A stretch of DNA of 33,862 nucleotides from positions 1 to 33,862 of the IMG/VR virus record IMGVR_UViG_3300017963_000216. The stretch is one strand, 5' to 3'. The DNA is from a virus. Lineage: Duplodnaviria > Heunggongvirae > Uroviricota > Caudoviricetes. Shown piece by piece: positions 3,537 to 18,925 of the stretch (positions within the stretch are counted from its first letter, which is position 1; every line of letters begins with the position of its first letter). The notes under the pieces are model-generated. The model was not told the DNA's origin and did no database searches. It saw nothing but the letters and a program-made list of their open reading frames with translations. Position numbers and translations under genes: made by a program.

Positions 3537-3540
3537 CAAG

Positions 3541-3583
3541 GGAAACAACACAACAAAGGAAACAACACAACAAAGGAAACAAC
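3541..3583 (+). repeat. 17-bp tandem repeat (2.5 copies) forming the mRNA leader
   Basis: GGAAACAACACAACAAA x2 plus GGAAACAAC directly before ATG 3584. Confidence 0.9.
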
Positions 3584-4553: not shown

Positions 4554-4747
4554 ACAAGGAACCCTACGACCCTGAGGTGACCGAGATCATCCTCAGCCAT
4601 TTGGCGGGTGGTAGCTACGACTTCATCCACTACCCGTGGATGAAGCCACTGTACCGCAAGCTGATCAATAAGAATGTGTGCATCAAGTGTGGTGCTAAGA
4701 TCCCACCCGGCAAGGCCGGGAGAAAGTGCAAGTCATGCCGAACCTAG
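4550..4747 (+). CDS. hypothetical protein with C-terminal zinc ribbon
   Basis: CIKC...CKSC. Confidence 0.7.
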   Translation: MNKEPYDPEVTEIILSHLAGGSYDFIHYPWMKPLYRKLINKNVCIKCGAKIPPGKAGRKCKSCRT

Positions 4748-5268
4748 CATCAGCTGTGGCGTACGCCAAGCATGTCCACCGAAACGACCGCCGCAAGTGG
4801 GGCGGGCAGCTTTACATCTACCATCCCATGCGGGTGATGACCGAGGCCATGCTGCGAGGCATGAACGAAGCACACCTAATGGCTGCCGTCTGCCACGACA
4901 TCCTTGAGGACCACCCAGAGCCGACCCCCGAGGCCGCGTACAAGATGCTGAATTGGCACATCGGCAGCATAGCCACCAGCATCGTCGGGATGCTGACCAA
5001 CAGATTCACCAAAGAGGCCTACCCGGACATGAACCGGGCAGACAGGAAGGCCGCTGAGTTCAAGCGTCTGGGCACCTTGCCGGACAGCGTAAAGATCCTC
5101 AAGATGTACGACCGCATCGACAACCTGGAGTCCATAGGGCTCGACATCGGGTTCTCTCGCCTGTACGGTGAGGAGAGCCTCCTCCTGTTCGACCACATCG
5201 GCCATGCAGACCCAGAACTAGATGCCAAAGGCCGACGCCTTGCCATCGAAGCAGCGAGAGCGAGCTGA
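4735..5268 (+). CDS. HD-domain hydrolase, RelA/SpoT hydrolase-like (small alarmone hydrolase-like)
   Basis: AVAYAKHVH..DRRK..GQLYIYHPMRV, AAVCHDILED, KILKMYDRIDNL match the SpoT/Mesh1 HD signature. Start could be 4726. Confidence 0.85.
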   Translation: MPNLASAVAYAKHVHRNDRRKWGGQLYIYHPMRVMTEAMLRGMNEAHLMAAVCHDILEDHPEPTPEAAYKMLNWHIGSIATSIVGMLTNRFTKEAYPDMNRADRKAAEFKRLGTLPDSVKILKMYDRIDNLESIGLDIGFSRLYGEESLLLFDHIGHADPELDAKGRRLAIEAARAS

Positions 5269-5269
5269 T

Positions 5270-5440
5270 ATGATTTCATTTTCTATTGGACAAATAGACC
5301 AGTGTGCGTTATGCTTTAAGCATGGAGGGGAAGCAAAGCTCAGAGCGAAGTGCTGTGAGATCGCACGAGAGTTAACCCGCGACGACGATGAGTTCGACGC
5401 CATCGTCGACGACATTATGGACAGGATCATGAACAAATGA
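5270..5440 (+). CDS. small hypothetical protein
   Basis: ATG 1 nt after the HD gene stop; ATGA overlap downstream; start uncertain. Confidence 0.45.
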   Translation: MISFSIGQIDQCALCFKHGGEAKLRAKCCEIARELTRDDDEFDAIVDDIMDRIMNK

Positions 5441-5820
5441 GTGAGCAAACTGCATTTAAGCAAACTGCATTAGATGTCATCAAGAATCGTGTGCGCAGGA
5501 TGGGCGACCGGATCGAAGCAGGTGAGAAGCTGATGGAAGACGCTCACAATCTTCTCCGGGAGATTGCCGACACCGGGCACACGTTCAAGTGCATCATGAC
5601 GAACAACGCACGAGAGTGTCAACTGTCACACCGCTCCTCCCGAGGCGACCGAGCTTTCGTCTCGGTCTCCTACAACTTCGACGTGGCTGGGGAGCTGCTG
5701 ATCAAAGAGGGTCGTCATTCCGATGACGTCACGCGAGTTACTACTCAGGCAGACCTGAACATCGCCATCGGCGATCTGGTAGTCAAGTATTGTCGAGAGC
5801 ACAGGATCAAAGAACTATGA
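5437..5820 (+). CDS. hypothetical protein
   Basis: ATGA overlaps at both ends. Confidence 0.7.
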   Translation: MSEQTAFKQTALDVIKNRVRRMGDRIEAGEKLMEDAHNLLREIADTGHTFKCIMTNNARECQLSHRSSRGDRAFVSVSYNFDVAGELLIKEGRHSDDVTRVTTQADLNIAIGDLVVKYCREHRIKEL

Positions 5821-6209
5821 ACGAAGACCTACGAATGCGAATAGACCACAGCCCGACCCCGACGGTAGAACAGTTCTTCATCGAACTGATCGACGTCTTG
5901 TGGAAGGCCTGCCGGGACACCGACAAGGCCGGACGCACCTTGTGCGTGGAGATCCAAGAGATCGACGGCGACGAGGACGACACCGGCTATGTGTGCGACC
6001 TGGAGGACGAGTTCTACATGTGCCTGGAGGCCCGTGTGGACTTCGGGACGCGTTGCGACTACCTTGTGCATGAGATGGCACACATCGACTGCTGGGAGCG
6101 CACAGTGAAGCGTGAGGAGGATCACTGCATGATCTGGGGCGTGAGCTACGCCAAGATGTACCGAACCTACCTCAATTTCTACAACAAGTTCTGGGAGTGC
6201 GACGAATGA
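5817..6209 (+). CDS. HExxH zincin/SprT-like metallopeptidase-like protein
   Basis: DYLVHEMAH followed by a downstream H-x3-WG (EDHCMIWG). Confidence 0.65.
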   Translation: MNEDLRMRIDHSPTPTVEQFFIELIDVLWKACRDTDKAGRTLCVEIQEIDGDEDDTGYVCDLEDEFYMCLEARVDFGTRCDYLVHEMAHIDCWERTVKREEDHCMIWGVSYAKMYRTYLNFYNKFWECDE

Positions 6210-6775
6210 ACGACCTGATCATCAACGAACGCAAAGGCGACAAGATCCTGTGGACCTACGACGGGCTCGACGGGACGACCGACATAGTCGACGAAGACTA
6301 CGTCTGCAATACCGAGCTGGTCAACTGCGACAACATACGCCTGACCCGGAGTTGCCAGATATGGATCGAAGAGCAGCTCGCAGCAGCGGTGCTGGTGGCA
6401 GCCGAGTCCGAACGAATCTGGGACGCCTGGGAGCAGTGGGAAGAGGAGACTGGTGACCTGCTAGTGGTCATCCCGTCCATCGACCACACCCCTGACGAGA
6501 TCGCCTTCGAGACTCCCGGCGTGGAGTTCCGGCTGGTGGCTCTGCACGAGGGGTGGGGGCAGGGTAGCACGTTCGTGAGTGCACCCGTGGAAAACCCAAC
6601 CTGGGGCGATGTCATGCGACAGTTTGAGGTGGCCGTACAAATGACCGGCGACACTCACCACAATTTCATGGAGGGGTTGATCCTCCTCCCGGAAAGCAAG
6701 TATCACAAACTGCCTCCGGTGTGCGAGATGCATCCCGAGGACACCATTTACCTTCAATTCTGCACTGGGAGCTAA
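6206..6775 (+). CDS. acidic hypothetical protein
   Basis: ATGA overlap; conserved-looking TWGDV...GDTHHNFMEG...FCTGS C-terminus. Confidence 0.75.
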   Translation: MNDLIINERKGDKILWTYDGLDGTTDIVDEDYVCNTELVNCDNIRLTRSCQIWIEEQLAAAVLVAAESERIWDAWEQWEEETGDLLVVIPSIDHTPDEIAFETPGVEFRLVALHEGWGQGSTFVSAPVENPTWGDVMRQFEVAVQMTGDTHHNFMEGLILLPESKYHKLPPVCEMHPEDTIYLQFCTGS

Positions 6776-6776
6776 C

Positions 6777-7016
6777 ATGCCGGAACCACGAATCGTACTC
6801 AGCCGCCGCAACCTACTGTCCCTGCTCCACAAGCTGGAGATGAAAGACAGTGCTCGGACCATCATCAAGTACACCGACTCGGACGAGCCGCTCCTGGTAT
6901 CCTCCATGGACGACAACGAATACTACGACCGGGCCCCTGGGCAGATGCACCCCGAGACCGAGGCGTTCGTCGAAGACATGATGTGCGCACTGGAGATCGT
7001 GAGGAATGGACGTTGA
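6777..7016 (+). CDS. hypothetical protein
   Basis: Starts 1 nt after the previous stop. Confidence 0.7.
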   Translation: MPEPRIVLSRRNLLSLLHKLEMKDSARTIIKYTDSDEPLLVSSMDDNEYYDRAPGQMHPETEAFVEDMMCALEIVRNGR

Positions 7017-7174
7017 ACTACTTCGCAATCACAGTAGTGCTGATGCAGACCGCCGCCGCCATCCAGTACGCCCGCCAGGGGCTGTACTGGGAGGCAGGGC
7101 TGTGGATGACGTATGGAGCTGGGAACATTATTCTCATGATTCTAGCAGCCAAGCGTTTGACAACTGGAAACTAG
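7013..7174 (+). CDS. small two-helix membrane protein
   Basis: Probable TTG start overlapping the stop (TTGA); hydrophobic NYFAITVVLMQTAAAIQY...LWMTYGAGNIILMILAA. Confidence 0.5.
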   Translation: MNYFAITVVLMQTAAAIQYARQGLYWEAGLWMTYGAGNIILMILAAKRLTTGN

Positions 7175-7192
7175 GCAGCATACTTTAGGTAG
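7157..7192 (+). promoter_or_regulatory. sigma70-type promoter (subtype A)
   Basis: TTGACA(7157-7162)-N16-CATACT-TTAGGTAG; same tail as 10861 and 18788. Confidence 0.75.
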
Positions 7193-7202
7193 AGGACCTA
7201 CA

Positions 7203-7469
7203 ATGCTCAGCAAAAACATGACAGCCAAGGCCGCCGCCTTCCAAGTAATGAAGGACGAGTTCGAGCAGCACATCATGGACGAGATAGTGAAGGTAGCCAC
7301 CCAGATGAACTTGGATGAAGCCGCGTTCCTGCATTACGGCAACATGTACACTAGGGGGCATTACGAAGTCCCGAGCAAGAGACTGGACGCGCTGGACGAC
7401 CTGTATTGTGACAACATCCACAGTGGCGGCTTCCAAGGCATCTGGCAGAAAGAGAAAGGCTGGAGCTAA
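7203..7469 (+). CDS. hypothetical protein
   Basis: GAGGA RBS after the promoter. Confidence 0.75.
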   Translation: MLSKNMTAKAAAFQVMKDEFEQHIMDEIVKVATQMNLDEAAFLHYGNMYTRGHYEVPSKRLDALDDLYCDNIHSGGFQGIWQKEKGWS

Positions 7470-7609
7470 TGAAACGCTACATCGTCATCATGCACGGCGG
7501 CGACGTCCGAGAGTGCACCTTGGAGAATGGTGCCTATGTTCATGTCCTACACAGGGCGTGGCAAGTCTTGACAACCGATTCACGAATCAAGAGAGTGAAA
7601 GAACTATGA
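7469..7609 (+). CDS. small hypothetical protein (46 aa, below ORF-track cutoff)
   Basis: MKRYIVIMHGGDVRECTLENGAYVHVLHRAWQVLTTDSRIKRVKEL; TAATG and ATGA overlaps fill the gap exactly. Confidence 0.6.
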   Translation: MKRYIVIMHGGDVRECTLENGAYVHVLHRAWQVLTTDSRIKRVKEL

Positions 7610-8766
7610 TCGACTCGTACAACATCTACGGCGGCGACGGAATCGACCAGGGGTCACGCACCCAGATGGACAACGCTATCGCCCTGCCGAGCGCACGCAA
7701 GGCAGCCCTGATGCCTGACGCGCACCTTGGCTACGGCCTGCCCATCGGCGGCGTGCTCGCCACCGAGGGAACCATACTGCCATATGGTGTCGGCATGGAC
7801 ATCGCCTGCCGCATGCGGATCACGCTGGCAGCTGCGCACCCTCTCATGCTCAACGTCCTGGAGGGCAACTGCCCGCAAGAGAACGCCTACCTGGACAAGG
7901 GGCTCCGTGAAGGCACCCGGTTCGGGATGGGCAACGACTACTCGCCCGGCGAGCGTCAGAGCCACCCGGTGATGGACGACCCAGAGTGGGACACAACACC
8001 GTTCCTCCGCGAGCTGAAAGACAAGGCGTGGAACCAACTCGGCACCAGCGGTGGCGGAAACCACTTCGTCGAGTGGGGCCTCTGCACATACAACACCCGA
8101 GAGTACATCGCTCTCATGTCTCACAGTGGGTCGCGAGGCTGCGGCCATCAGGTCTGCACACACTACACCAAGATCGCCAAGGAACTGAACCCGGCTGGCG
8201 AGTTGTCGTGGCTGGACCTGAACAGCGAGGCCGGGCAGGAATACTGGCACGCGATGAACCTGATGGGCCGCTACGCTGCGGCAAACCACGAGGTCATCCA
8301 TCGCAACGTGTTCCGTATCGCCGGTCTTGGGCGTGGGGCTCACGTAGAGAATCACCACAACTTCGCATGGATGGAAGAGCACGACGGCAAGGACCTGATC
8401 GTACACCGCAAGGGCGCGACCCCGGCAGCCATCGGCGACATGGGAGTGATCCCTGGTTCCATGGCCACCCCGGCGTACATCGTCTCAGGCAAAGGCAACG
8501 CTGATAGTATCTGCTCAGCGTCGCACGGTGCGGGACGGCTGATGAGCCGCAGCGCTGCTAAGAAGGCCTTCAACTGGCCTGAGTGGCAGGATTACCTGGG
8601 CGAGCGCGGCGTGCGATTGTTGCAGGGTGGCCTGGACGAAGTGCCGGGTGCCTACAAGGACATCACCAAGGTAATGGCAGCCCAGAGCGACTTAGTCGAC
8701 ATCGTAGGGGCGTTCATCCCGAAGATTGTTATGATGGCCCCACCCCAGAAACGAGGACGCCGATGA
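7606..8766 (+). CDS. rtcB: RtcB-family RNA ligase
   Basis: MPDAHLGYGLPIGGV, VGMDIAC, QLGTSGGGNHFVE, HSGSRG, NHHNFAW, VHRKGATPA, IPGSM, SASHGAGR, DEVPGAYKDI. Start set at 7606, not 7315. Confidence 0.95.
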   Translation: MIDSYNIYGGDGIDQGSRTQMDNAIALPSARKAALMPDAHLGYGLPIGGVLATEGTILPYGVGMDIACRMRITLAAAHPLMLNVLEGNCPQENAYLDKGLREGTRFGMGNDYSPGERQSHPVMDDPEWDTTPFLRELKDKAWNQLGTSGGGNHFVEWGLCTYNTREYIALMSHSGSRGCGHQVCTHYTKIAKELNPAGELSWLDLNSEAGQEYWHAMNLMGRYAAANHEVIHRNVFRIAGLGRGAHVENHHNFAWMEEHDGKDLIVHRKGATPAAIGDMGVIPGSMATPAYIVSGKGNADSICSASHGAGRLMSRSAAKKAFNWPEWQDYLGERGVRLLQGGLDEVPGAYKDITKVMAAQSDLVDIVGAFIPKIVMMAPPQKRGRR

Positions 8767-8906
8767 GACTACGACCTAGGCAACGACCAGCCGAGACCCT
8801 TCCACAGTTTCGACACCGGATGAAGTCCGAAGGATTCCAATGGTGTATGGATAGACTGGAGTGGCACACAGACTGGTGCACCTCTTACCCGAATTGGATT
8901 TGGTAA
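8763..8906 (+). CDS. small Trp-rich hypothetical protein (47 aa)
   Basis: ATGA and TAATG overlaps. Confidence 0.5.
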   Translation: MRLRPRQRPAETLPQFRHRMKSEGFQWCMDRLEWHTDWCTSYPNWIW

Positions 8907-9172
8907 TGTTCACAGTGTGCTGGTATTGTATGAGAACGGTGTCCGTTGACAAGAACAACCTGCTGGGCTGCCACGTAGACAACGGATGGATTCGAGGCCG
9001 GAAGGCAGTGCGATGCAAAGGCTTCAAGACGGAGGCCCGGTGGGTTGAGAAGCACAAACTAAGTGCCATGGGCCGGAATCGCCAAGGGGTGTGCATGGCC
9101 TGTGGCGAAACAGAAACCAATCGGGAGTGCCCCCAGTGCTGCCGTGAAAAACGATGGGAAAACAACAAATGA
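8906..9172 (+). CDS. Cys-rich zinc-binding hypothetical protein
   Basis: CWYC, CMAC, CPQC motifs. Confidence 0.65.
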   Translation: MFTVCWYCMRTVSVDKNNLLGCHVDNGWIRGRKAVRCKGFKTEARWVEKHKLSAMGRNRQGVCMACGETETNRECPQCCREKRWENNK

Positions 9173-9618
9173 ATCGCAACGCTTTCTTTGACATCATCAA
9201 CGCCCGCTCGGCGGCTTATGCCGAGGCCAACGCCTACGACGAAGCGATCAGGTCCGCCTCCAAGGCGTGCAACGCCGTAATCGACGGCAAGCAACGCGAG
9301 CCGTGCGACTCGCACAGTTACAAAATCGAGGAGATACTTCGGTACGGCCACAAGTTCATCATCAAGTTCACCGATGGCTCGTGGCTGGGCGTCACCGCAG
9401 ACGACTGCGAGTACGACAACGAAGGGCTGCAATACAACGAGCGACTCAGCTACGATGACGCCTACAAGCTGGGCATCCTCACCGAGGAGTTGTACGGAGC
9501 GTGGCGTGAGGCCTGCGAGAACAAGACGAGCCGCGAGAAGAACACCCGAGGCATGACGGCCTTGCAAGAGGCTATGACCTGCCTCGGCACCGAACGCATC
9601 AAGGAACTGGTCAAATGA
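9169..9618 (+). CDS. hypothetical protein
   Basis: ATGA overlaps; strong coding-like codon bias. Confidence 0.75.
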   Translation: MNRNAFFDIINARSAAYAEANAYDEAIRSASKACNAVIDGKQREPCDSHSYKIEEILRYGHKFIIKFTDGSWLGVTADDCEYDNEGLQYNERLSYDDAYKLGILTEELYGAWREACENKTSREKNTRGMTALQEAMTCLGTERIKELVK

Positions 9619-9797
9619 ATCCACTCACAATCCTAGCATCACAGTCGCTTCACGACTGGCAAGCAGAAGCTAAGGCCGCTGGCTATGACGACACCTATGA
9701 GTACGTCGCCAAGCACACCGGGGCAACGCGACACGAAGTGAAGAACCTTTTCTTCGCTCAGTTGTACGGCGGACCTGGAACAATGAGGAAATACTGA
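9615..9797 (+). CDS. 60-aa protein resembling the family A DNA polymerase fingers (motif B/O-helix)
   Basis: TRHEVKNLFFAQLYGG fits R-x3-K-x3-F-x3-YG, preceded by a D(T/I)(Y/H)-like segment DDTY. Confidence 0.55.
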   Translation: MNPLTILASQSLHDWQAEAKAAGYDDTYEYVAKHTGATRHEVKNLFFAQLYGGPGTMRKY

Positions 9798-10384
9798 TGA
9801 ACCACTGGCGCACCATCCGATACACTGACGACGGCTGTTACCTGTACGAGTGCCTCTCCTGCAAAGAGCGGTGGGAAGCTCGGCAGGCTCCCGGCTACTA
9901 CGACCAGTGGGTCGACACAGAGGTGCAAGTGGAGGGTGGCTGGACCACCACGAGCAGCGGCGTGCCTCACCACTACGCCAAGCGCGCTGTGCCCGTGTAC
10001 GTGCCGCACTGGCGGTTCTGCCCTTACTGCGGCACCACGTGGAAAGGCCCCATCCGTTGCGACATCGACAACCCATACATGTATGGCGAGCGGCGTAAGC
10101 TGGCCTACAACTGCGACCGTGGTGGCTACTGCAACCCGGATTACTGGTACTGCATCATGGTGTCCGAGGGGCGGCAACCCTACATCACCTCCAAGGTGGA
10201 CCCGCGAGAGCACAGCATCATCGAGGTGCATGAGTTCGTCAAGCGGAAGAACGCCGAGGCAGAACCCGAGTTGAGGTGGCGTGGCAATACGCCAGAAGAG
10301 GTGAAAACCATATACTCCATCCGCATCATGAAGGACAGTGCGATGGAGCTTCGAGGTTATGTCCGTTCGGAGTACATTCGATGA
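9797..10384 (+). CDS. zinc-ribbon hypothetical protein
   Basis: YECLSC...FCPYCG. Confidence 0.75.
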   Translation: MNHWRTIRYTDDGCYLYECLSCKERWEARQAPGYYDQWVDTEVQVEGGWTTTSSGVPHHYAKRAVPVYVPHWRFCPYCGTTWKGPIRCDIDNPYMYGERRKLAYNCDRGGYCNPDYWYCIMVSEGRQPYITSKVDPREHSIIEVHEFVKRKNAEAEPELRWRGNTPEEVKTIYSIRIMKDSAMELRGYVRSEYIR

Positions 10385-10689
10385 GAGAAGCAATTAAGAA
10401 GTACGTTGCCCTGAAGCTGGGGTTCAGCACGGTCGTCCACATCAGCGGCAGCCTGCACGACGAACTCGAAGAGACCCGCAAGGCTTACCACAAGGCAGAG
10501 GTCACCGTCGGAATGGACGAAGGCGCTCTAGCCAAGTGCATCGAACTCGGCATGGACTGCTACACCACCAACTCGTGGAAGAGCAACCTGCGGGAAGCCA
10601 AAGCCAAGCGCAAGGTGGCGAAACGCAAGTACGAGGAAACCCTGGCTGCCTACCGAGACTTCCAGGACGCGAGAGAGGTGTGTGGATAA
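10381..10689 (+). CDS. helical/coiled-coil hypothetical protein
   Basis: GGAG RBS, ATGA overlap. Confidence 0.7.
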   Translation: MREAIKKYVALKLGFSTVVHISGSLHDELEETRKAYHKAEVTVGMDEGALAKCIELGMDCYTTNSWKSNLREAKAKRKVAKRKYEETLAAYRDFQDAREVCG

Positions 10690-10856: not shown

Positions 10857-10860
10857 TTAT

Positions 10861-10896
10861 TTGACACGTCCGTTTCTCGGTGTATGCTTTAGGTAG
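10861..10896 (+). promoter_or_regulatory. sigma70-type promoter (subtype A)
   Basis: TTGACA(10861-10866)-N16-TATGCT(10883-10888)-TTAGGTAG, then an A/C-rich leader and AGGAG RBS. Confidence 0.85.
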
Positions 10897-10932
10897 ACGA
10901 AACAACAAACAACTCAACCAGGAGACACAACG

Positions 10933-12312
10933 ATGGCCTTACTTCTTATCCAGAATCGCGGAGAGTGCCCAGAGGAAGCTTTCACTTTAATGGGTGCCAG
11001 CCTCAGTCGCTCGGACGACGGCCTGCTCGGTCAGTTCGGCAGTGGTGCCAAGCTCGCCATCTGCACGCTGCTCCGCATGGGCAAGAGAGTCATCATTTAT
11101 TCGGGCAAGACCCGCATGGAGTTCAAATGTCGGACAATCGAAATCAGCGACGACATCGAGTCGCAGCAGAAGGAGCGCGTCTTCGTCCAGTACGGCGGCA
11201 CCTCCACCCGCAAGGAAGACCTGGGCTGGGTCGTTGACATGGGTGCCATCGACTGGAAATGCAACCTGGACATGGCCATCCGGGAATTTGCGGCCAACGC
11301 CATCGACCACACCGTCAAGCGTGGGGATGACCTGAAGGAAGCCCGCGCCAACCGCGACCTGTGTGTCGAGATCGTTCCGGACGGCCTTCGTAAAGCACAG
11401 AAGGGATTTACAAGGGTGTACATCGAGTCGTGCGAGAAGTGCGAAGAGTATGTGGACGCACTGCCCCGCAAGTTCCTGCAATTCAGCAACCAGCCGCTGA
11501 ACCAGCCGATCATGCCCAAGATCAACCCGCTCAATAAGAAGGTGCAAGTGTACCTCTGCGGAGCGTTCGTCTGCGAGCTGAAGGACAGTGCGGACAGCAT
11601 GTTCGACTACAACTTCCGCAAGGACCAGATCGCCATCGACGAGAGTCGCAACCTGGGCGAGTACGCGGCCCGTGCCGCCATCGCCAAGCTGTACAAGGAT
11701 GCACCCGCCGTGACGCTCAGCAAGGTGTTCCAAGCCCTGCTGGACGGTGTGGCGTGCCTTGAGACAGGGCTCGACACTTACTACATCAAGCCGGATTGGT
11801 CCGGTGCGAGAGACAGTCAGAAGACACGCTGGCAAGACGCCTGGGCTTCCTGCCACGCCGACGACGCTGTCATCTGCTCTGGGCAGAGCAACGTGGTGGA
11901 GAAGTACGCCAAGCAGAAGGGCTATGTCCTGGGCTCGGTGAGCAACTCAAGCTGGGTCGAGTGTGCCAGCCAGTACGGAATCAAGACCATCACCGACGTG
12001 CTGGATGTGGACGAACGAGAAGGCCGCGTCACACAGCCGCCCACCCTCGAAGCGGAAGCGGCGTTCGTCAAGGCGAGCCAGTTCATGGCTGACCGAGACC
12101 TGCTCGACACCCCGTGCACGGTGTGCGGATTCACTGAAGAGAAGAGCGAGACCGAAGCCTACTACCGCGAGTCGGTCGTGTACATCCGAACCGACGTGTT
12201 CGACAACCTGGAGTCCCTGTGCATTGAGCAGCTGGCCAAGCACAACGTCCGAACCAACAGCGCCCGCATGACGTCCGACGTCCTCCTGCTGGCCTGTGTC
12301 AGGAGCATGTAA
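10933..12312 (+). CDS. GHKL (HATPase-like) ATPase domain protein with rearranged motif order
   Basis: G-box LMGASLSRSDDGLLGQFGSGAK at aa 19-40; N-box-like AIREFAANAID at aa 115-125. Confidence 0.7.
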   Translation: MALLLIQNRGECPEEAFTLMGASLSRSDDGLLGQFGSGAKLAICTLLRMGKRVIIYSGKTRMEFKCRTIEISDDIESQQKERVFVQYGGTSTRKEDLGWVVDMGAIDWKCNLDMAIREFAANAIDHTVKRGDDLKEARANRDLCVEIVPDGLRKAQKGFTRVYIESCEKCEEYVDALPRKFLQFSNQPLNQPIMPKINPLNKKVQVYLCGAFVCELKDSADSMFDYNFRKDQIAIDESRNLGEYAARAAIAKLYKDAPAVTLSKVFQALLDGVACLETGLDTYYIKPDWSGARDSQKTRWQDAWASCHADDAVICSGQSNVVEKYAKQKGYVLGSVSNSSWVECASQYGIKTITDVLDVDEREGRVTQPPTLEAEAAFVKASQFMADRDLLDTPCTVCGFTEEKSETEAYYRESVVYIRTDVFDNLESLCIEQLAKHNVRTNSARMTSDVLLLACVRSM

Positions 12313-12566
12313 TGATACTGGGCAGCTACAACAAGCAGCACTGCGGAGCCATCAAAGTCACCTCAGGACTCTTCGTCCTGGGTGACCAAGTGGACATCAA
12401 CGGCGTCACCTACACGGTCATCAGCACCGACGGGATGATCAGCCCTGGGGTGTACGGCCTGTGGTTGGACCGCCCGCTGGAGGCCGACGTCCGAGACCTG
12501 GACAGCATCAAATATGTGGGCAAGTGGCCCGCAAGCAAATACTTCGTCTTCGGAGGCAAGTCATGA
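12312..12566 (+). CDS. small beta-rich hypothetical protein
   Basis: TAATG overlap; GDQVDINGVTYTV...LDRPL. Confidence 0.7.
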   Translation: MILGSYNKQHCGAIKVTSGLFVLGDQVDINGVTYTVISTDGMISPGVYGLWLDRPLEADVRDLDSIKYVGKWPASKYFVFGGKS

Positions 12567-12829
12567 AATACCTACTCGCCTCGTACCAGATCATCGACGC
12601 CGTCATCTATCACCCAGAGTCCTGCAAGCCGGTCTACGTCGAGACCAGCCACGACATACTCGCGCTCATCAACGCGCACATGAAGGACAACTACTGGGAC
12701 GAAGAGATCACGTCCACCCGGATTGATCTCGACAAGCTGACCGTGATCATCAAAACCGAAGACACTGACGGGAAGTTCACCAACACCCGCACCTTTTACC
12801 TGATCCCAATCCAGAGGTACGTCGGATGA
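12563..12829 (+). CDS. hypothetical protein
   Basis: GGAGG RBS; overlaps at both ends. Confidence 0.7.
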   Translation: MKYLLASYQIIDAVIYHPESCKPVYVETSHDILALINAHMKDNYWDEEITSTRIDLDKLTVIIKTEDTDGKFTNTRTFYLIPIQRYVG

Positions 12830-13677
12830 AAACTCACACTTTCTCCATCGTCGTCGGCACCCGTGCCTGCAACTTCAAGTGCCCGTTCTGTGTCAGCAAG
12901 ATGACCTGCCGGTCTGCGAAGAAGCACGACATCAACTGGAACCGGTTCGATATAGCCTGCCGGATCGCAGAGCAAGCACGTGACGGTCTGGTGAACGCCA
13001 TGTTCACAGGCACTGGCGAGCCCACCCTGTTTCCGGACGACATCACCGACATGCTGCACATCATGAACAAGCGGTTCCCGCTGGTGACGTTGCAGACAAA
13101 CGGTGCACTGTTGACACAGATCCAGCTAAACAAGTGGGCAGCCCTAGGGCTCACAGGGGTGTGTCTGTCGGTGGCCGACTACGACCACACCAACAGCAAC
13201 AAGCTCATGGGAATGGAAGGGCTAGACTACAACTTCTGGGCCGCAGTCGACATGATACATGAGGCTGGCCTGATGGTGCGGCTGAACTGCACCATGGTGA
13301 AGGGTGGCGTCGCCAACACGCACGCAGTTGAGAACCTGATCACCGTCTGCAAGGACAACGAGGTCGAGCAACTGACGCTGCGTGAGGTCGACCGACCCGG
13401 CAACCCCGCTGGTGCACCTGAGGTGGCCGACTGGGTGGACGCCCACAAGCCTGACGGCTTCGCCAAGGAACTGTTCAACTACCTGACGTACCGTGGTGGC
13501 AACCGGCTGCCAGACCTGCCGCACGGCGGCGTGGTGTTCGACTACCGAGATCAGAACGTCTGCATCTCCAACTGCCTGACCGAGTCGCGAGACCCGAACG
13601 ACATCCGGCAAATCATCTTCTTCCCCAACGGGGAGATCAGCTACGACTGGAAGTACAAGGGGGCACGAATACTGTGA
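12826..13677 (+). CDS. radical SAM enzyme
   Basis: CNFKCPFC (Cx3Cx2C), FTGTGEPTL (GGE-like motif), LQTNG. Confidence 0.9.
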   Translation: MKTHTFSIVVGTRACNFKCPFCVSKMTCRSAKKHDINWNRFDIACRIAEQARDGLVNAMFTGTGEPTLFPDDITDMLHIMNKRFPLVTLQTNGALLTQIQLNKWAALGLTGVCLSVADYDHTNSNKLMGMEGLDYNFWAAVDMIHEAGLMVRLNCTMVKGGVANTHAVENLITVCKDNEVEQLTLREVDRPGNPAGAPEVADWVDAHKPDGFAKELFNYLTYRGGNRLPDLPHGGVVFDYRDQNVCISNCLTESRDPNDIRQIIFFPNGEISYDWKYKGARIL

Positions 13678-13820
13678 TGAGTGAACGAGCGAATAAGATT
13701 CGCGACATGCGACCCAAGCCTGCCGCGCTCATGGTCTTCCAGTGGGTGAAGACTGGAGTCATCGGGGCTCGCGAGTTCTACGAGTTGGCCGAACTGATTT
13801 ACGAGGACCTCAATGTATAG
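13677..13820 (+). CDS. small hypothetical protein (47 aa)
   Basis: MSERANKIRDMRPKPAALMVFQWVKTGVIGAREFYELAELIYEDLNV; TGATG overlap. Confidence 0.55.
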   Translation: MSERANKIRDMRPKPAALMVFQWVKTGVIGAREFYELAELIYEDLNV

Positions 13821-14277
13821 CTACCCAGCAGCACCTGACGACGGCACCGACCGACAAGTGACAGTGATCCTGACCGACCAGGGTGGTGACATCATCAACG
13901 ACGCCCTAGAGCTGACGTGGTCGCACGCTCTGATCTACCTGGACAACGACTGGATCTACGAGGCCACTTGGCCATGGGTGCGGAAGACGAACCCCTGGGA
14001 CGGCAGGGCTCTCGGCAAGGCCACCAAGGTCGAGCACTTCGAGCTGTTCGTGACAGAGCAGCAGCAACAAGACATGATCAAGTACGCCGAGTCGCAACTC
14101 GGCAAGCTGTACAACTTCTGGGGATACTTCTTCCCGAAGTTCTACAACAAGACGTACGGCGTCTACTGCTCGCAGTATGTCTGCCAAGTGTTACGGGCGG
14201 GTGACATCAACATTCCAATCGGTGCTGGCTACAGCCCCGACAAACTTCTCAAAACATTAAGGGTTTACAACCGATGA
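13813..14277 (+). CDS. permuted papain-like NlpC/P60 enzyme (YiiX/YebB-like)
   Basis: His before Cys: WSHALIY...IYEA...YAESQLGKLYN...YCSQYV. Confidence 0.8.
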   Translation: MYSYPAAPDDGTDRQVTVILTDQGGDIINDALELTWSHALIYLDNDWIYEATWPWVRKTNPWDGRALGKATKVEHFELFVTEQQQQDMIKYAESQLGKLYNFWGYFFPKFYNKTYGVYCSQYVCQVLRAGDINIPIGAGYSPDKLLKTLRVYNR

Positions 14278-14648
14278 AATCTCTCGAAGACCTAATCCAG
14301 CCGGGCAAACAACTCTGCATCCGGAAGCACTCGGCCCCTGGCATGTCCGGCTACTCATGTACCATCCGCGAGATCCCTGAATGTGAGGAGTCGTTTTCGT
14401 GGGGCGAGGCCGGACACAGCGAGAAGCCTTTGTGTGCTGTGAACAACTTCGTGGCTCTGCAAAACGGCATCGGGGTCTTCCGGGAAACAAGCGAGTTCAA
14501 GGAACTCACCTTGACCGGTGATCAAGTCCAGAAAGTGAAAGCGGCACTCAATGGTCTCAAAGTGGACAAGTACGGGGACGTCATCGTCACCTGCTCGCTT
14601 AGTGCGAAGGTGGACGACGCGCTCGCCATCATTGGAGCGCAACGATGA
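14274..14648 (+). CDS. hypothetical protein
   Basis: ATGA overlaps. Confidence 0.7.
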   Translation: MKSLEDLIQPGKQLCIRKHSAPGMSGYSCTIREIPECEESFSWGEAGHSEKPLCAVNNFVALQNGIGVFRETSEFKELTLTGDQVQKVKAALNGLKVDKYGDVIVTCSLSAKVDDALAIIGAQR

Positions 14649-15187
14649 AGTGCAACAAGTACCAGAAACTGGCGTTGAAGTCTGTGGACTATGGCTGCGG
14701 GCGACCCATTGAGTACCCACCCTACGGCCTGTGCGGCGAGATGGCTGAGGTGCTCAGTGAGTTCCACTCATGCTCTCACGGTGACGATGACGCGTTACTG
14801 CTTGAGATCGGCGATTGCCTGTGGTATATCTCTGCCATGTCCGACGACATAGGGCTGAAGCTGAGCTATGTCCTCGACGTGAAAGACCTCAAGGATGTTG
14901 TTCCGTACCCGTGCCCAGCTAGCAACCTCCCCATCTTCTGTGGGACGGTGGCAGAGCAAGTGAAGAAGATGGTGCGCGACGACTGTAAGCGTCTTTCCAC
15001 CGCCAGGATGAACAAGATCGTAGGGGCCTTACGAGGTGCGGCGAGATGTCTGCAAGGGCTCGCCAACGAACGGGAGGTGGTGCTGGATCGCAAGGGCAAC
15101 CTGATAGGTTACAGCCTGAACGAAGCCGCCTACCTGAACCTCGACAAGCTAAAGACCAAACGAGAGAAGAAAGGCAGTGTAGGATGA
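14645..15187 (+). CDS. MazG-like nucleotide pyrophosphohydrolase
   Basis: YQKLA...YGLCGEMAEV...LLLEIGDCLWYI; second half VAEQVKKMVRD...NLDKL. Confidence 0.8.
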   Translation: MKCNKYQKLALKSVDYGCGRPIEYPPYGLCGEMAEVLSEFHSCSHGDDDALLLEIGDCLWYISAMSDDIGLKLSYVLDVKDLKDVVPYPCPASNLPIFCGTVAEQVKKMVRDDCKRLSTARMNKIVGALRGAARCLQGLANEREVVLDRKGNLIGYSLNEAAYLNLDKLKTKREKKGSVG

Positions 15188-16104
15188 GCAGCATCGTTGA
15201 ATCACTGGCCAACAAAGGCCTGATCGACCCGCCAGACTTCGTGAAGTCCAACACCATGTACGAGTGCGTGGTGGGGTCTGTGGCATACGGCTGTGCCACC
15301 AACCTGAGCGACTACGACACCAACGGCTTCTGCATCCCGCCGAAGAACGTTGTGTTCCCTCACCTGAAGGGAGAGATCGAAGGCTTCGGTCGACAGAAGA
15401 AGCGATTCGGTGGCTGGCAGAAGCACCATGTGTTCGACAAGGACGCCTTGGGCGGCAAAGGCCGAGAGTACGACCTGAACATCTACAACATCGTCAACTA
15501 CATGCACCTGTGCATGGAGAACAACCCCAACATGGTGACGACGTTGTTCGTGCCTCGCGAGTGCGTTCTGTCGACCACCTCGGTCGGCGAGATGGTGCGA
15601 GAGGCCCGCCACAAGTTCCTGCACAAGGGCGCGTGGCACCGGTACAAGGGCTACAGCTACGCCCAGCTGCACAAGATGAAGGGGAAGAACCCGGAGCCCG
15701 GCAGCAAGCGGGACAAGCTACGGAAAGAGTTCGGGTTCGACGTGAAGTTCGGCTACCACACCGTCCGGCTTCTGTACGAGGCCGAGATGATCCTGAACGA
15801 GCACGACATCGACCTGCGGCGGCATCGGGAGCACCTGAAGAGCATCCGGCGTGGCGAGCAGACGATGGACGACATCATCGCCTGGGCGAGCAGCAAAGAG
15901 AAGGCCCTTGAGAAGGCCTACGAGGCCAGCTCGCTGCGTCACAGCCCAGACCAGCCCGCCATCAAGACTCTGCTGTTGGACTGCTTAGAGCACCACTACG
16001 GCAGCCTGGAGGCATCTGTGGTCCGGCCCGACGAGCTGACCCTGATCCTGGACAACATTACTGAACAAGTTCGCAAGTACGAAAGGGTACGTGACCGCAA
16101 ATAA
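15184..16104 (+). CDS. DNA polymerase beta-superfamily nucleotidyltransferase (RlaP/YcgL-like)
   Basis: VVGSVAYGCATNLSDYDTNG (GS-x-AYG...SDxD), NPNMVTTLF, KFGYHTVRL. Confidence 0.85.
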   Translation: MSSIVESLANKGLIDPPDFVKSNTMYECVVGSVAYGCATNLSDYDTNGFCIPPKNVVFPHLKGEIEGFGRQKKRFGGWQKHHVFDKDALGGKGREYDLNIYNIVNYMHLCMENNPNMVTTLFVPRECVLSTTSVGEMVREARHKFLHKGAWHRYKGYSYAQLHKMKGKNPEPGSKRDKLRKEFGFDVKFGYHTVRLLYEAEMILNEHDIDLRRHREHLKSIRRGEQTMDDIIAWASSKEKALEKAYEASSLRHSPDQPAIKTLLLDCLEHHYGSLEASVVRPDELTLILDNITEQVRKYERVRDRK

Positions 16105-16108
16105 ACAT

Positions 16109-16247
16109 TCTACCGTAGTGTTAATGGTGAGCATGACTTAGCCGACGGGCTGGGCCCCAGCGAAGGCGCACTCCTACCATGGGAGGAGAAAGTCGCAAGC
16201 ATGCCGGTTTCAACCCGGTGGAGGTGGTTCGATCCCACCCGGTAGGA
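16109..16247 (+). tRNA. atypical tRNA-like RNA with UCA anticodon-like arm and 68-nt insertion
   Basis: Acceptor TCTACCG/CGGTAGG + A; D-arm GTGT-TAATGGTGA-GCAT; T-arm GGTGG-TTCGATC-CCACC; arm GCCGG-TTTCAAC-CCGGT at 16203-16219; no encoded CCA. Confidence 0.6.
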
Positions 16248-16250
16248 CTC

Positions 16251-16283
16251 AACCCGGAGAAGGGAAACTTTCTTCGGGTTTTT
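16251..16283 (+). terminator. intrinsic terminator
   Basis: AACCCGGAGAAGG-GAAA-CTTTCTTCGGGTT then TTT; 13-bp stem including G-U pairs. Confidence 0.8.
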
Positions 16284-16296
16284 CTATGCGCTTTAC

Positions 16297-16330
16297 TTGA
16301 CTCTGCCTAGGGGCGTTGTATGCTTTAAGT
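16297..16330 (+). promoter_or_regulatory. sigma70-type promoter (subtype A)
   Basis: TTGACT(16297-16302)-N16-TATGCT(16319-16324)-TTAAGT; A/C-rich leader and AGGAG RBS. Confidence 0.8.
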
Positions 16331-16366
16331 GTAAGAGACAAACGAAACACCAACCAGGAGAGACAG

Positions 16367-16579
16367 ATGAACGAAGTCCTAGCCGAACTCGCCAAACACG
16401 AAGATCCTAAAGTCCGAGCCCTGGCCGAGAGAGGCCGGGAGCACCACAACCGACGCACCCGCATCATCGAGCTGGTACAGGAGGCTCTCCAGCAGCTTCG
16501 CCTCGACACGAAGTACCTCGTCTTCGACCTGGAGTGCACCCGCCGCGAGCGCGACGCCGCCATGGGAGATGCCCTGTGA
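16367..16579 (+). CDS. small helical protein resembling a conserved planctomycete hypothetical protein
   Basis: LQQLRLDTKYLVFDLECTRRERD resembles the motif LRLxxKYLVFDLEATRRE that I recall from Planctomycetes; not verified. Confidence 0.65.
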   Translation: MNEVLAELAKHEDPKVRALAERGREHHNRRTRIIELVQEALQQLRLDTKYLVFDLECTRRERDAAMGDAL

Positions 16580-16845
16580 GCGACATATCCCAAGTCTGCA
16601 TCCGATCAATCAGCAATCAAGCACAGACTCTGCTGGAGCTGTCAGACGCCCTGGAGATGGTGGGCAACGAGATCCTGTCAGAGAAGTTGTACTACATCAG
16701 CTCGCAACTCTCTAAGGCAGCCACCATGCTGCACGATGAGGAAGGCAAAGCCATCGGCGAGCAGATGGAGAGAATGAACGAGAGCAGCGCGAACATGTTG
16801 AACGCGTGCCTCGCTGGCGTGAAACTTGGAAGAGGGGACAAATGA
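16576..16845 (+). CDS. helical hypothetical protein
   Basis: GTG start overlapping the stop (GTGA). Confidence 0.65.
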   Translation: MSDISQVCIRSISNQAQTLLELSDALEMVGNEILSEKLYYISSQLSKAATMLHDEEGKAIGEQMERMNESSANMLNACLAGVKLGRGDK

Positions 16846-17474
16846 AAGACATCATCCTGAGAGAACCCGTGGCCGAAGTCTTGGAGCGGGCAGTAAAGAA
16901 GGCCGCTGGCTGGAGTGCCAAGCTCCCCATGGGCGACGAGGCAGCCACCCTGATCAGTCAAGACCAACCCATCGGCTTCTCGTGCCCCGTGTGCAAAGAG
17001 GTGTACGCGACAGCAGCGGAAGCCAGAGAGTGCCGGGACCAGCCGTACGACACTGCTGGGATGGAGATCGGTGACATCGTCGTGGTGCCCGGAGCCTACC
17101 ACAACAGCTATGATCCGAGTGACCCGTGGGTGGCGTTCGTCATCCCGCCAGACAAGGACTCTAACGACCACTTCGAGCGGGCTGGCTACACCATACCTTA
17201 CTTCGTGGTCACTGCCGTCCACAGCGAAGAGCGGAACCCACACCGTGCCCTGGTAACCCTGTGCTCCCTGGCTGGTGGATCGCTGAGGGCCGGTTGGAAC
17301 CCTGCTGACGGTGATGGGCATTATGCCATGTTTAAGCCCAACAGCACCGATAACAGGAGCTACTGGGGCAAAAGAATCCAGAAGTTCCTTGACTGCTGCG
17401 AGCCATGTGCTATTGTTAAGGTAGAAGCAGCTCAACTAGCAAACATCAAACTCAGCACACGGAGCCTTTTATGA
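16842..17474 (+). CDS. hypothetical protein with C2H2/CxxC-like element
   Basis: FSCPVCKEVY; GAGGGG RBS. Confidence 0.75.
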   Translation: MKDIILREPVAEVLERAVKKAAGWSAKLPMGDEAATLISQDQPIGFSCPVCKEVYATAAEARECRDQPYDTAGMEIGDIVVVPGAYHNSYDPSDPWVAFVIPPDKDSNDHFERAGYTIPYFVVTAVHSEERNPHRALVTLCSLAGGSLRAGWNPADGDGHYAMFKPNSTDNRSYWGKRIQKFLDCCEPCAIVKVEAAQLANIKLSTRSLL

Positions 17475-17605
17475 TCAGCATCATCGTCAGCATCATCGTC
17501 AGCATCCTATCCGTCCTTGCCTTCTTCGGGGCGTGGGCGTTCACGATGCTCTTGACACTCAAGCTCGCCTTCTACCTGATGTACCTGATGGGGAACACCA
17601 AATGA
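17471..17605 (+). CDS. 44-aa membrane peptide with a 12-bp internal tandem repeat
   Basis: MISIIVSIIVSILSVLAFFGAWAFTMLLTLKLAFYLMYLMGNTK; CAGCATCATCGT repeated. Confidence 0.55.
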   Translation: MISIIVSIIVSILSVLAFFGAWAFTMLLTLKLAFYLMYLMGNTK

Positions 17606-17784
17606 CCAAATGGCCAGCCAACATGGAAAAGCTTCGCTACTATGTGGCGTGCGTGACCACGATGGTCACAGGTGCGAAGTGCTACATCTGTTTCACGAAC
17701 AACAACAACGTTGTGGACGGCAAATTCAAGTGTGTTCACTGCGGCAACGTAAACCGAGTGAGGCTACCATGGCCAAGCGAGTGA
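17602..17784 (+). CDS. small zinc-ribbon protein
   Basis: CYIC...CVHC. Confidence 0.6.
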   Translation: MTKWPANMEKLRYYVACVTTMVTGAKCYICFTNNNNVVDGKFKCVHCGNVNRVRLPWPSE

Positions 17785-18140
17785 TGCACAAACGATGGGT
17801 GGCGAGAATGTGCTTCGAGGGTGAGAAGCCCCGGATGATTGTCGTGTGTGGCACCGTCCTGGAGACCGACAAGCAATACCGGATCGCCCGGCCAGAGTAC
17901 CAAGCCTCCGACGCTGTCTGGCGGGCCTTTCGTAAAGGCTTCTACCGAGAGGTGTGGCCCAAGGACTGCTACGAGATCGCGGAGATCGGCCACAGCAGCA
18001 AGGAAACTGCGGTGCAAGCATGCGTGGATTGGCACCAGCTTGCAGTGGAGCGGGCAGAGGCCCGGCTTCGGAACGCTCAGCGTGACGCCTGCACTGCGGC
18101 AGGGTTTAAGAACTACGAAGACTATGAGGTGATGAAATGA
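17769..18140 (+). CDS. hypothetical protein
   Basis: ATG 17769 after GAGG. Confidence 0.65.
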   Translation: MAKRVMHKRWVARMCFEGEKPRMIVVCGTVLETDKQYRIARPEYQASDAVWRAFRKGFYREVWPKDCYEIAEIGHSSKETAVQACVDWHQLAVERAEARLRNAQRDACTAAGFKNYEDYEVMK

Positions 18141-18400
18141 GCCCAGTAAGGAAGAAGACGTTGTGCGGCCCTGACGGCTGTCGTGTGGTCCTCGACAAGG
18201 ACGAGGTACATCCAGGCGACCCAGGTGCTGGAACGCCCGCTATGGTGTACTACAGGGGCGGCTCGGCCACTCTGGGGTGCGCCCTGGGCGAGGGTGAGAT
18301 CGAGAGCGGTCGGGATGGGTTCGTGATGCCCATTCCGCGCGACGTGTACGAGTGGCTTGAAGAGGCCGACTTGAAGGCCGACGAATTCCTGGGGTGGTAG
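18137..18400 (+). CDS. hypothetical protein
   Basis: GAGGTG RBS, ATGA overlap. Confidence 0.7.
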   Translation: MSPVRKKTLCGPDGCRVVLDKDEVHPGDPGAGTPAMVYYRGGSATLGCALGEGEIESGRDGFVMPIPRDVYEWLEEADLKADEFLGW

Positions 18401-18562
18401 ATGTTGATACAGCTGATGACCGAGACCCGGTGGCGGTATGTGTGCTCGGAGTGCGGCAAGGTGATAGAGCCGGGCACCATGTACGCCGACCTCTGGACCA
18501 TTAAGGGAAAGATGCACGAACACACTTGGCAGCACGCCGAGTGCAAAAGGGAGAAACCATGA
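18401..18562 (+). CDS. 53-aa CxxC...HxxC zinc-finger protein (not in ORF track)
   Basis: YVCSECGKVIEPG...WQHAEC; abuts the neighbours on both sides. Confidence 0.65.
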   Translation: MLIQLMTETRWRYVCSECGKVIEPGTMYADLWTIKGKMHEHTWQHAECKREKP

Positions 18563-18786
18563 TTATCGAATCCGAACAAGCAGACGGCCCGTGCGACAAC
18601 TGCGACAAGGGCACAGCCACCCACGGGGCGGTCCAGCAAGGTGCTACAGGCCGCTACTGCGAAGTGATGTGGATCTGCAAGACGTGTGCCATCAAGTGGG
18701 TCCAAGGGGATGAGACACAAATCCTCACCACCCAAGAGGCGCGAGACAAGTGCAACGCCAACCCGTACGGTTACGCCGATTTCTAA
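18559..18786 (+). CDS. CxxC hypothetical protein
   Basis: CDNC...CKTC; GGGAG RBS. Confidence 0.7.
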   Translation: MIIESEQADGPCDNCDKGTATHGAVQQGATGRYCEVMWICKTCAIKWVQGDETQILTTQEARDKCNANPYGYADF

Positions 18787-18787
18787 T

Positions 18788-18823
18788 TTGACAACCTCCA
18801 CCTAGGGTGTATACTTTAGGTAG
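18788..18823 (+). promoter_or_regulatory. sigma70-type promoter (subtype A) driving the mini-tmRNA
   Basis: TTGACA(18788-18793)-N16-TATACT(18810-18815)-TTAGGTAG. Confidence 0.85.
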
Positions 18824-18827
18824 AGAA

Positions 18828-18925
18828 GGGGGCGAAACAGATTCGACTACCGCCCGCCTGAGGCTAAAGGCCCATGCTCACAGCCGAGGGTGGCTAGGAC
18901 TCCGGGGCAGTACCGGACGCCTCCA
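18828..18925 (+). ncRNA. tmRNA reduced to its tRNA-like domain (no mRNA-like domain)
   Basis: Acceptor GGGGGCG/CGCCTCC + A with a G3-U70 wobble; stemless D-loop AAACAGATTCGAC; P2-like helix CTACCGCCC/GGGTGG(C)TAG; GAC linker; T-arm TCCGG-GGCAGTA-CCGGA. Confidence 0.85.

Follow-up and report, generated by a model that had tools for sequence, protein, structure and literature searches.

The first 33.9 kb of the 101.6-kb IMG/VR virus record IMGVR_UViG_3300017963_000216 (33,862 nucleotides, referred to as the window; the genome has an estimated completeness of 96%) contain, between positions 4735 and 18925, genes for an RtcB RNA ligase, a nucleotidyltransferase of the RlaP family, a SpoT/Mesh1-type HD protein and a MazG-like protein, together with a five-arm tRNA-like RNA and a small RNA that comprises little more than the tRNA-like domain (TLD) of a transfer-messenger RNA (tmRNA). 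With a probability of roughly 0.55, this region is an early accessory part of an uncultured tailed phage of ~100 kb, in which separately acquired host-takeover or counter-defence functions and two bona fide small RNAs share a theme without forming an obligate genetic unit. The parts share the theme of keeping translation running under attack, which has already been recognised for large phages (PMC7824862), and behave as interchangeable accessories, i.e. as a loose collection. The original prediction, which regarded the six components as one coordinated system, had identified each of them correctly, as judged from profile matches, motifs, folds and the conservation of both RNAs in a related contig (L004):

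4735..5268, plus strand: SpoT/Mesh1-type HD protein, small alarmone-hydrolase-like, 177 amino acids (PF13328, phrog_990, TIGR00691, motifs)
7606..8766, plus strand: RtcB RNA ligase, 386 amino acids (PF01139, catalytic motifs)
14645..15187, plus strand: MazG-like all-alpha nucleoside triphosphate (NTP) pyrophosphohydrolase, 180 amino acids (phrog_229, EXXE-18 residues-EXXD)
15184..16104, plus strand: RlaP (PF10127) Pol-beta nucleotidyltransferase, 306 amino acids (PF10127, phrog_388, GS...DxD)
16109..16247, plus strand: five-arm tRNA-like RNA, 139 nt, anticodon loop UUUCAAC (UCA), no encoded CCA (fold, descriptor, L004 orthologue)
18828..18925, plus strand: TLD-only (tag-less) mini-tmRNA, 98 nt (fold, L004 orthologue, ends shared with the tmRNA of contig L002)

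The distribution of these parts was followed in the single close relative, L004, which was compared over its 19-kb locus, in 80 other IMG/VR loci with RlaP, for which neighbours were counted within a radius of 10 kb, and in 50 large RlaP-positive contigs, for which the counts are genome-wide. L004 keeps RtcB, RlaP (75% identical) and both RNAs, and most of the neighbouring genes are common to both, but no match to the HD, MazG-like or radical SAM protein was found in its 19-kb locus, the RtcB module is relocated downstream of the TLD RNA, and an HNH gene is present ahead of RlaP. Within 10 kb of RlaP, RtcB was found in 3, HD in 5 and MazG in 1 of the 80 loci, and even anywhere in the 50 large contigs RtcB occurs in just 10 (HD_4 in 22, tmRNA in 13). 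tRNA or tmRNA genes lie within 10 kb of RlaP in 38/80 loci, nearly all on the RlaP strand. Relatives whose RlaP is 70-73% identical have other genes instead, namely those for Thg1, an RF-1-domain protein, Ro60 (accompanied by Y-RNA-like RNAs) or an RNA ligase; these Thg1-like, ArfB-like and RNA ligase genes are alternative accessories for tRNA repair or ribosome rescue. Since relatives have the parts in largely independent combinations, an outcome that had been named beforehand as counting against coordination, the claim of a single system is weak.

The block is indeed encoded on one strand, as had been predicted (genes in the window are directed rightward until ~22 kb), but its promoter richness is modest, with 10 sigma-70-like sites versus 5.6 ± 2.3 in shuffled sequences (a mild enrichment), and it is divided into several units, not one. 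Four strong plus-strand sites lie in or beside the gaps before positions 7203, 10933, 16367 and 18828, and there is a sole strong terminator:

7157..7184, plus strand: sigma-70-like promoter, TTGACA-16-CATACT, at the 3' end of the 7013-7174 gene and ahead of the gene at 7203; unit with RtcB
10861..10888, plus strand: sigma-70-like promoter, TTGACA-16-TATGCT, in the gap before the gene for a 459-amino-acid protein at 10933; unit ending in RlaP and the tRNA-like RNA
16251..16280, plus strand: intrinsic terminator with a 13-bp stem, GAAA loop and T run, after the tRNA-like RNA
16297..16324, plus strand: sigma-70-like promoter, opening the unit after the terminator
18788..18815, plus strand: near-consensus promoter, TTGACA-16-TATACT (11/12), 13 nt 5' of the TLD RNA

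On the basis of predicted promoters, the block would comprise at least four or five promoter-defined units. Because these promoters and the terminator divide it, the HD gene, RtcB, the group of MazG-like gene, RlaP and tRNA-like RNA, and the TLD RNA fall into separate units, with 6.4 kb between RtcB and RlaP. A hairpin and T run similar to the terminator also follow the L004 copy of the tRNA-like RNA. One coordinated translation-protection system, which would repair cut tRNA or rRNA, suppress alarmone shutdown and divert ribosome rescue, could account for the presence of every part on one strand within 14 kb, for the persistence of RtcB, RlaP and both RNAs in L004 and for the frequency of HD_4 in large RlaP-positive phages (22/50); given the several units, the relocated RtcB, the missing HD and MazG matches and the low counts around RlaP, it is considered unlikely.

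The 98-nt RNA has a 7-bp acceptor stem (GGGGGCG/CGCCUCC, with G3:U70) and discriminator A73. Its D-loop analogue lacks a stem and ends in GAUUCGAC, helix P2 is replaced by a capped hairpin, and the T arm consists of a 5-bp stem and the loop GGCAGUA. The mRNA-like domain (i.e. resume codon, tag open reading frame (ORF) and pseudoknots) is absent, the ~60 nt between the strands being one hairpin; from a reading of the sequence there is no plausible tag-like frame, nor are the substitutions relative to L004 coding-like. The best match among the tmRNA-clan models of Rfam is alpha_tmRNA with 11.5 bits. The L004 copy (12666-12763) is 95% identical across exactly 98 nt, beyond which the flanks are unalignable, and of the five differences three are, on our reading of the alignment, unpaired, one turns a C-G pair into U-G and one affects a weak terminal pair. 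Judged from this comparison, the TLD RNA appears to be under strong purifying selection.

Its origin is indicated by a sister contig in IMG/VR (L002, found with a 20-nt probe): a full one-piece tmRNA there (Rfam 67 bits, E 1e-24) begins with the same 5' sequence, and the first 21 and the last 27 nt of the window RNA are identical to it. Because its ends match this full tmRNA, the window RNA corresponds to a tmRNA that lacks the tag template as well as pseudoknot 1 and pseudoknots 2-4, and its ancestor would be a complete phage tmRNA whose tag-coding part and pseudoknots were lost. The window promoter is not conserved in L004, where the RNA starts directly after the stop codon of an upstream ORF; this start implies that it is freed there by processing.

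Genes for SmpB, a CCA-adding enzyme, Ro60 or an RF-1-domain factor were not found in the phage genome (searched at its 96% completeness), and without its own SmpB, CCA-adding enzyme and RF-1-domain factor the phage must rely on host factors for the TLD RNA. The RNA would be charged with alanine and bind the SmpB of the host, the phage having none. Mycobacteriophage DS6A is listed as "TLD only", and a molecule of this kind is noted to be a strong inhibitor of tmRNA, perhaps through SmpB titration (Hudson, Lau & Williams 2014, PMC4131195, citing Mao et al. 2009). By the definition in that paper (PMC4131195), the window RNA is of the DS6A type, being a phage gene with little beyond the TLD: both are phage-encoded and consist of the TLD alone, with a G3:U70 acceptor stem and a T arm, no tag frame and no pseudoknots. 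By analogy, inhibition of host trans-translation by SmpB titration may be expected for both, and from the DS6A case and the data on TLD inhibition it seems that the window RNA would block or divert trans-translation tagging. The two differ in that the window phage belongs to another lineage, probably with a host from another phylum, that its TLD RNA is 98 nt long with a capped P2-like hairpin, and that a sister contig keeps a full tmRNA with identical ends, which points to an origin by internal deletion. The RNA and the sister contig together are a clear example of a ribosome-rescue RNA turned into a probable inhibitor. With regard to the host, the tmRNA 5' 20-mer is found in Alphaproteobacteria, Planctomycetales, Myxococcales and Thermoleophilia, and the GGCAGUA T loop is nearer to examples from Thermoleophilia and Myxococcales than to those from Planctomycetales; no host is assigned.

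Among the 50 large RlaP-positive contigs, 12 full tmRNAs and two reduced forms of 135 nt were counted. The reduced forms lie in phage contigs of 572 kb (G050:C1:7846-7980, minus strand; L208) and 341 kb (G017:C1:88709-88843, plus strand; L209), and have a G3:U70 acceptor stem and a T arm without pseudoknots; one of them may retain a 7-codon tag frame.

The 139-nt tRNA-like RNA begins four nucleotides past the RlaP stop codon. A 7-bp acceptor stem (UCUACCG/CGGUAGG) is followed by U8-A9 and a D arm with GG in its loop, after which, between the D stem and the anticodon stem (positions 25/26), a 67-nt insertion is found. The anticodon arm has a 6-bp stem and the loop UUUCAAC, with U33, UCA and A37; a short variable region leads to the T arm, which contains UUCGAUC, and the discriminator is A73. 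The features of elongator tRNAs are thus present (7-bp acceptor stem, U8, D-loop GG, T loop TTCRA, a 7-nt anticodon loop with U33 and R37), but the RNA is not a four-arm cloverleaf of 70-95 nt as recognised by tRNA models. In the window, neither small RNA was reported by ARAGORN or by Rfam at the gathering threshold; there is no full match to the Rfam tRNA models, the tRNA-like RNA giving tRNA-Sec at 18 bits and its L004 copy a partial tRNA match of 30.6 bits. A purpose-written descriptor of the tRNA shape produced 100 hits across 88 real loci, as opposed to 0 in shuffled sequence, with this RNA as one of seven hits longer than 95 nt. Both small RNAs share their 3' style (discriminator, C, T(T)) with the canonical tRNA genes of the phage, six in number and all outside the window, among which CCA is encoded only in tRNA-His.

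The orthologue in L004 lies at 9666-9807, separated from RlaP by a 91-aa ORF. MAFFT mis-registered the 3' third of the two-sequence alignment, so pairs were counted by script in place of a covariance model: 22/22 cloverleaf pairs are kept, four of them by compensatory double changes (3-70, 26-44, 27-43 and 29-41) and three by single changes that are compatible with wobble pairing, and the anticodon loop is identical. In the insertion, the first hairpin folds in both copies despite a different sequence, while the two do not differ in a 17-nt core (GCCCCAGCGAAGGCGCA), in CCAUGG or in CGCAAGCA. A second 5' acceptor strand inside the insertion (CCUACCA) was considered and dropped, being present in the window only.

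Beyond L004, searches of IMG/VR, JGI metagenomes, GenBank phages and the 50 large RlaP-positive contigs yielded no homologue of the tRNA-like RNA. An exact search for its T-arm and anticodon pattern gave 0 hits, as did the core pattern with 3 mismatches in the 50 contigs, and blastn against GenBank phages found no homologue of either RNA, with two short chance-level matches for each. Matches to a 16-nt core were discarded as coincidences within coding sequence, e.g. a cytosine methyltransferase motif, and two metagenome scans returned 0 hits and 73 unrelated hits, with the L140 match lying inside a 931-aa ORF.

Three points weigh against the region being a loose collection with two functional RNAs. 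The joint retention of RtcB, RlaP and both RNAs in L004 is also what would be expected of a functional set; one orthologue was found for each RNA, so that the covariation is that of two sequences; and the strictly conserved 17-nt core of the insertion has no explanation in it.

The best reading of the 139-nt RNA is that of a tRNA mimic tied to tRNA repair or processing. It would be transcribed together with the MazG-like and RlaP genes, closing the unit at the terminator, and would probably be freed by tRNA-processing enzymes. tRNA-like RNAs are known to accompany RtcB in bacteria, namely the YrlA Y RNAs (PMC4201824) and the predicted b7a-tRNA (bioRxiv 10.1101/312249), and the window RNA most likely acts in a similar manner, i.e. 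as a cofactor, substrate mimic or decoy for tRNA-recognising enzymes. With these it shares a structured body with genuine D and T arms and an acceptor stem, an RNA-repair neighbourhood and a probable handling by tRNA enzymes. Unlike either, it keeps a full UCA anticodon arm and adds a fifth domain at position 25/26; furthermore, YrlA is circularly permuted and lies beside Ro60, a gene which the phage lacks, and b7a-tRNA adjoins a Band-7 gene, whereas the only such gene of the phage is ~50 kb away.

Identity with YrlA was accordingly rejected: the order of the arms is that of a normal tRNA and not the permuted T-AS-D, Rfam gives no YrlA match, the GNCGAAN0-1G motif is absent with the core AGCGAAGG as a near match only, and the 96%-complete genome has no Ro60/TROVE gene, expected within ~4 kb on the same strand. 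The b7a-tRNA arrangement was rejected as well, RtcB lying 7.3 kb upstream in another unit and the only Band_7 gene ~50 kb off. This Band-7/SPFH domain protein (E 2e-18) is encoded outside the window at 65617-66045 on the minus strand, ~50 kb from both RtcB and RlaP; in the repair operons of bacteria, its family is found together with b7a-tRNA and RtcB.

A decoding role is unlikely for the tRNA-like RNA. As a working opal (UGA) suppressor tRNA it would have a canonical anticodon loop (U33, UCA, A37), the same in both copies, and the extra arm might serve synthetase recognition: the second hairpin of the insertion (16171-16185, CUCC-UACCAUG-GGAG) presents a 7-nt loop, UACCAUG, with CCA (the Trp anticodon) at the anticodon positions, the CCAUGG is kept in L004, and suppressor-type tRNAs occur near RlaP in other phage contigs. 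However, the CCA of L004 lies in a 10-nt loop in another register, the discriminator is A73 versus G73 in bacterial tRNA-Trp, and a 67-nt domain at position 25/26 is unprecedented in decoding tRNAs. TGA is moreover the commonest stop codon, ending 42/75 coding-like frames without a coding-like extension past any of them, and the standard code yields a normal coding density; in-frame TGA in late genes, as in a TGA-recoded genome, was not seen, nor were candidates for read-through. Because TGA is the main stop codon of the phage, a general suppressor is unlikely, and a working opal suppressor of any kind is held to be distinctly improbable.

Little more than an outside chance is given to the idea that the 139-nt RNA is a dedicated partner of RlaP and RtcB, either as a pre-tRNA(UCA) losing its 67-nt domain by cleavage and RtcB ligation, or as a continuously repaired bait for host anticodon nucleases, with the co-retained TLD RNA handling the resulting stalled ribosomes. 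If true, the pre-tRNA(UCA) version would amount to protein-dependent tRNA splicing in a bacterial virus.

The splicing step taken by itself, i.e. an intron-like insertion whose excision by an endonuclease or ribozyme leaves 2',3'-cyclic-phosphate/5'-OH ends for RtcB to join into a ~72-nt tRNA(UCA), is slightly more remote still. RtcB is the tRNA-splicing ligase of archaea and animals, the genome carries RtcB and RlaP, the repeat AGCAUG stands at both boundaries of the insertion, and a near-canonical cloverleaf remains once the insertion is removed. In L004, however, the boundary repeat and the GCAUG/CAUGC helix are absent, a bulge-helix-bulge motif could not be drawn in both copies, and no splicing endonuclease was seen. 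The sole ribozyme hint (Twister-P5, 13 bits) is present in the window only, being absent in L004, and was treated as noise. In addition, the core of the insertion is more conserved than the flanking stems, which fits a functional domain better.

That one or both RNAs are functionless, decaying remnants (a pseudo-tRNA and a deleted tmRNA gene) is very improbable, for although standard finders miss both and their minimum free energy z-scores are unremarkable (0.09 and -1.26), the TLD RNA is 95% identical where RlaP is 75% identical, with conservation ending at the RNA ends, the tRNA-like RNA shows four compensatory changes and no broken pair, and a dedicated promoter and terminator flank the RNAs.

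RtcB matches PF01139 with E 8e-83 and is full-length: MPDAH, DIAC, GNHF, HSGSRG, HHN and SHGAGR align with the catalytic residues of Pyrococcus horikoshii RtcB (PDB 4dwr), covering all metal-binding motifs and the GMP-histidine motif. Its start was set at 7606 and not at 7315, which would give an ORF of 483 amino acids that is too long, because the L004 orthologue (83% identical) has 387 amino acids and an ATGA overlap at 7606 fits a coupled start. A peptide-pattern scan for RtcB in IMG/VR gave no matches. RlaP scores 64 bits against PF10127 (cut-off 23, E 2e-17) and 6e-44 against phrog_388; it has 4220 homologues at E<1e-10, and G31, S32, D43 and D45 (GS...DxD) are invariant in the RlaP alignment. 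RlaP and the MazG-like gene are translationally coupled, the start of the former (15184) and the stop codon of the latter sharing the sequence ATGA.

RtcB and RlaP are an established pairing in RNA repair (PMC7824862; PMC12776372), in which RlaP restores damaged tRNA 3' ends (PMC12776372, preprint). Going by the established activities of the two families, RtcB would seal breaks with 2',3'-cyclic-phosphate/5'-OH ends, and RlaP would put back one or two nucleotides on damaged 3' ends. Repair sets of RtcB or Rnl with RlaP were described by Burroughs & Aravind (2016), as cited in PMC7824862. The phage resembles these in combining an RtcB with an intact site and an RlaP in one genome, within a region with tRNA-type genes, and differs in that RlaP has a MazG-like gene and a tRNA-like RNA as its coupled neighbours, with neither RtcA nor RtcR.

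The HD protein matches Pfam HD_4 (PF13328) with 30.7 bits (cut-off 27.2, E 3e-7), phrog_990 with 7e-19 and the N-terminus of TIGR00691, i.e. the hydrolase part of RelA/SpoT, with 1e-9, and its closest PDB structures are Drosophila Mesh1 (3nqw) and bacterial small alarmone hydrolases (7qoc). As the H...HDxxED...DRxxN set is intact (H30, HDILED at 54-59, DRIDN at 127-131), it probably hydrolyses (p)ppGpp-type alarmones. An 'HD-alarmone PDEase' is known from jumbo phages (PMC7824862). Like that protein and the Mesh1-type small alarmone hydrolases, the window protein is a single phage HD_4 domain of ~180 amino acids with HDxxED and DRxxN, a likeness seen at the level of sequence; it differs in not being conserved in L004. 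The MazG-like protein scores 1.4e-11 against phrog_229 and 16.6 bits against Pfam MazG (PF03819), which is under the cut-off of 22, and a PDB search gave no match for it. Its family membership is taken from motifs (EMAE...18 residues...EIGD), and it probably hydrolyses some NTP.

The RtcB/RlaP set, the RtcB-associated tRNA-like RNA, the phage alarmone hydrolase and the TLD-only tmRNA are all of known kinds, and there is no support for the wider claim that they make up a new multi-part system of defence evasion. The original prediction had also held that a link between a TLD-only tmRNA, an insertion-bearing UCA tRNA and RtcB with the nucleotidyltransferase was undescribed. In part it is described already, by YrlA and b7a-tRNA next to RtcB and by the TLD of DS6A; the five-arm UCA RNA itself is new. 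In fact, its 67-nt insertion between the D and anticodon arms, with a UCA loop and here directly coupled to RlaP, is the only novel variant among the parts. Lying 4 nt past RlaP, it is a phage case of tRNA-like RNAs accompanying RNA ligases and repair enzymes, and the RlaP and RNA are a compact pair for biochemistry. That both RNAs are missed by standard annotation means that phage genomes are likely to be under-annotated for tRNA mimics.

Several other RlaP loci hold genes or RNAs of a related kind. Directly after RlaP, Thg1-like 3'-5' polymerases, a 123-aa RF-1-domain (ArfB-like) protein and an ATP-dependent RNA ligase (KIDGTN) were found (L008:2663-3334, L021:1968-2675, L021:5759-6130 and L025:1077-1616). 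A tRNA-like element of ~95 nt lies 25 nt past a 73%-identical RlaP (L006:10958-11050, the same in L007 and L026) and is missed by ARAGORN; its T arm and D loop are normal, but the anticodon arm is extended and internally looped, and the acceptor stem contains a C-A mismatch. Ordinary tRNAs follow RlaP at 6 and 40 nt in L044 and L046. Suppressor-type tRNAs were reported by ARAGORN 2-9 kb from RlaP, with CUA in L039, L051 and L084 and UCA in L073; in L051 and L084, the distance between RtcB and RlaP is also below 5 kb. In contig L022 (Logan SRR21398042), which has RlaP at 3332-4279 and Ro60/TROVE from 13332, three tandem tRNA-shaped RNAs of 127-142 nt precede Ro60 (12254-12886). Two of these are recognised by the Rfam tRNA model (52 and 49 bits) and have a domain of 72-76 nt where the anticodon loop would be, and the motifs ACUUGUUG, CAACCGAAG and GGUUAUC recur; the array is probably Y-RNA-like with an unpermuted tRNA topology.

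As to the genome in general, the phage DNA has a G+C content of ~57%, and coding frames were told apart by high GC3 and low GC2; megablast found no nucleotide similarity between the block and GenBank phages. The phage-specific protein of 459 amino acids (10933-12312), for which ESM Atlas suggests an ATP-binding protein of the GHKL/MPN635_N type, co-occurs with the 154-aa protein (13813-14277; permuted-papain-like, C92/YebB-like, a weak match) upstream of RlaP or Thg1 in L004, L008 and L021; L006 has only the 459-aa member of the pair. The radical SAM enzyme at 12826-13677 gives generic matches only (MoaA, NrdG and viperin-like N-terminal halves), and in L004, where it is unmatched, a different radical SAM gene occupies the equivalent place. 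Ahead of the TLD RNA, at 18401-18786, lie two small Cys-rich ORFs resembling zinc ribbons, of which the 75-aa one (18559-18786) is 67% identical in L004 and is there too found immediately 5' of the TLD RNA.

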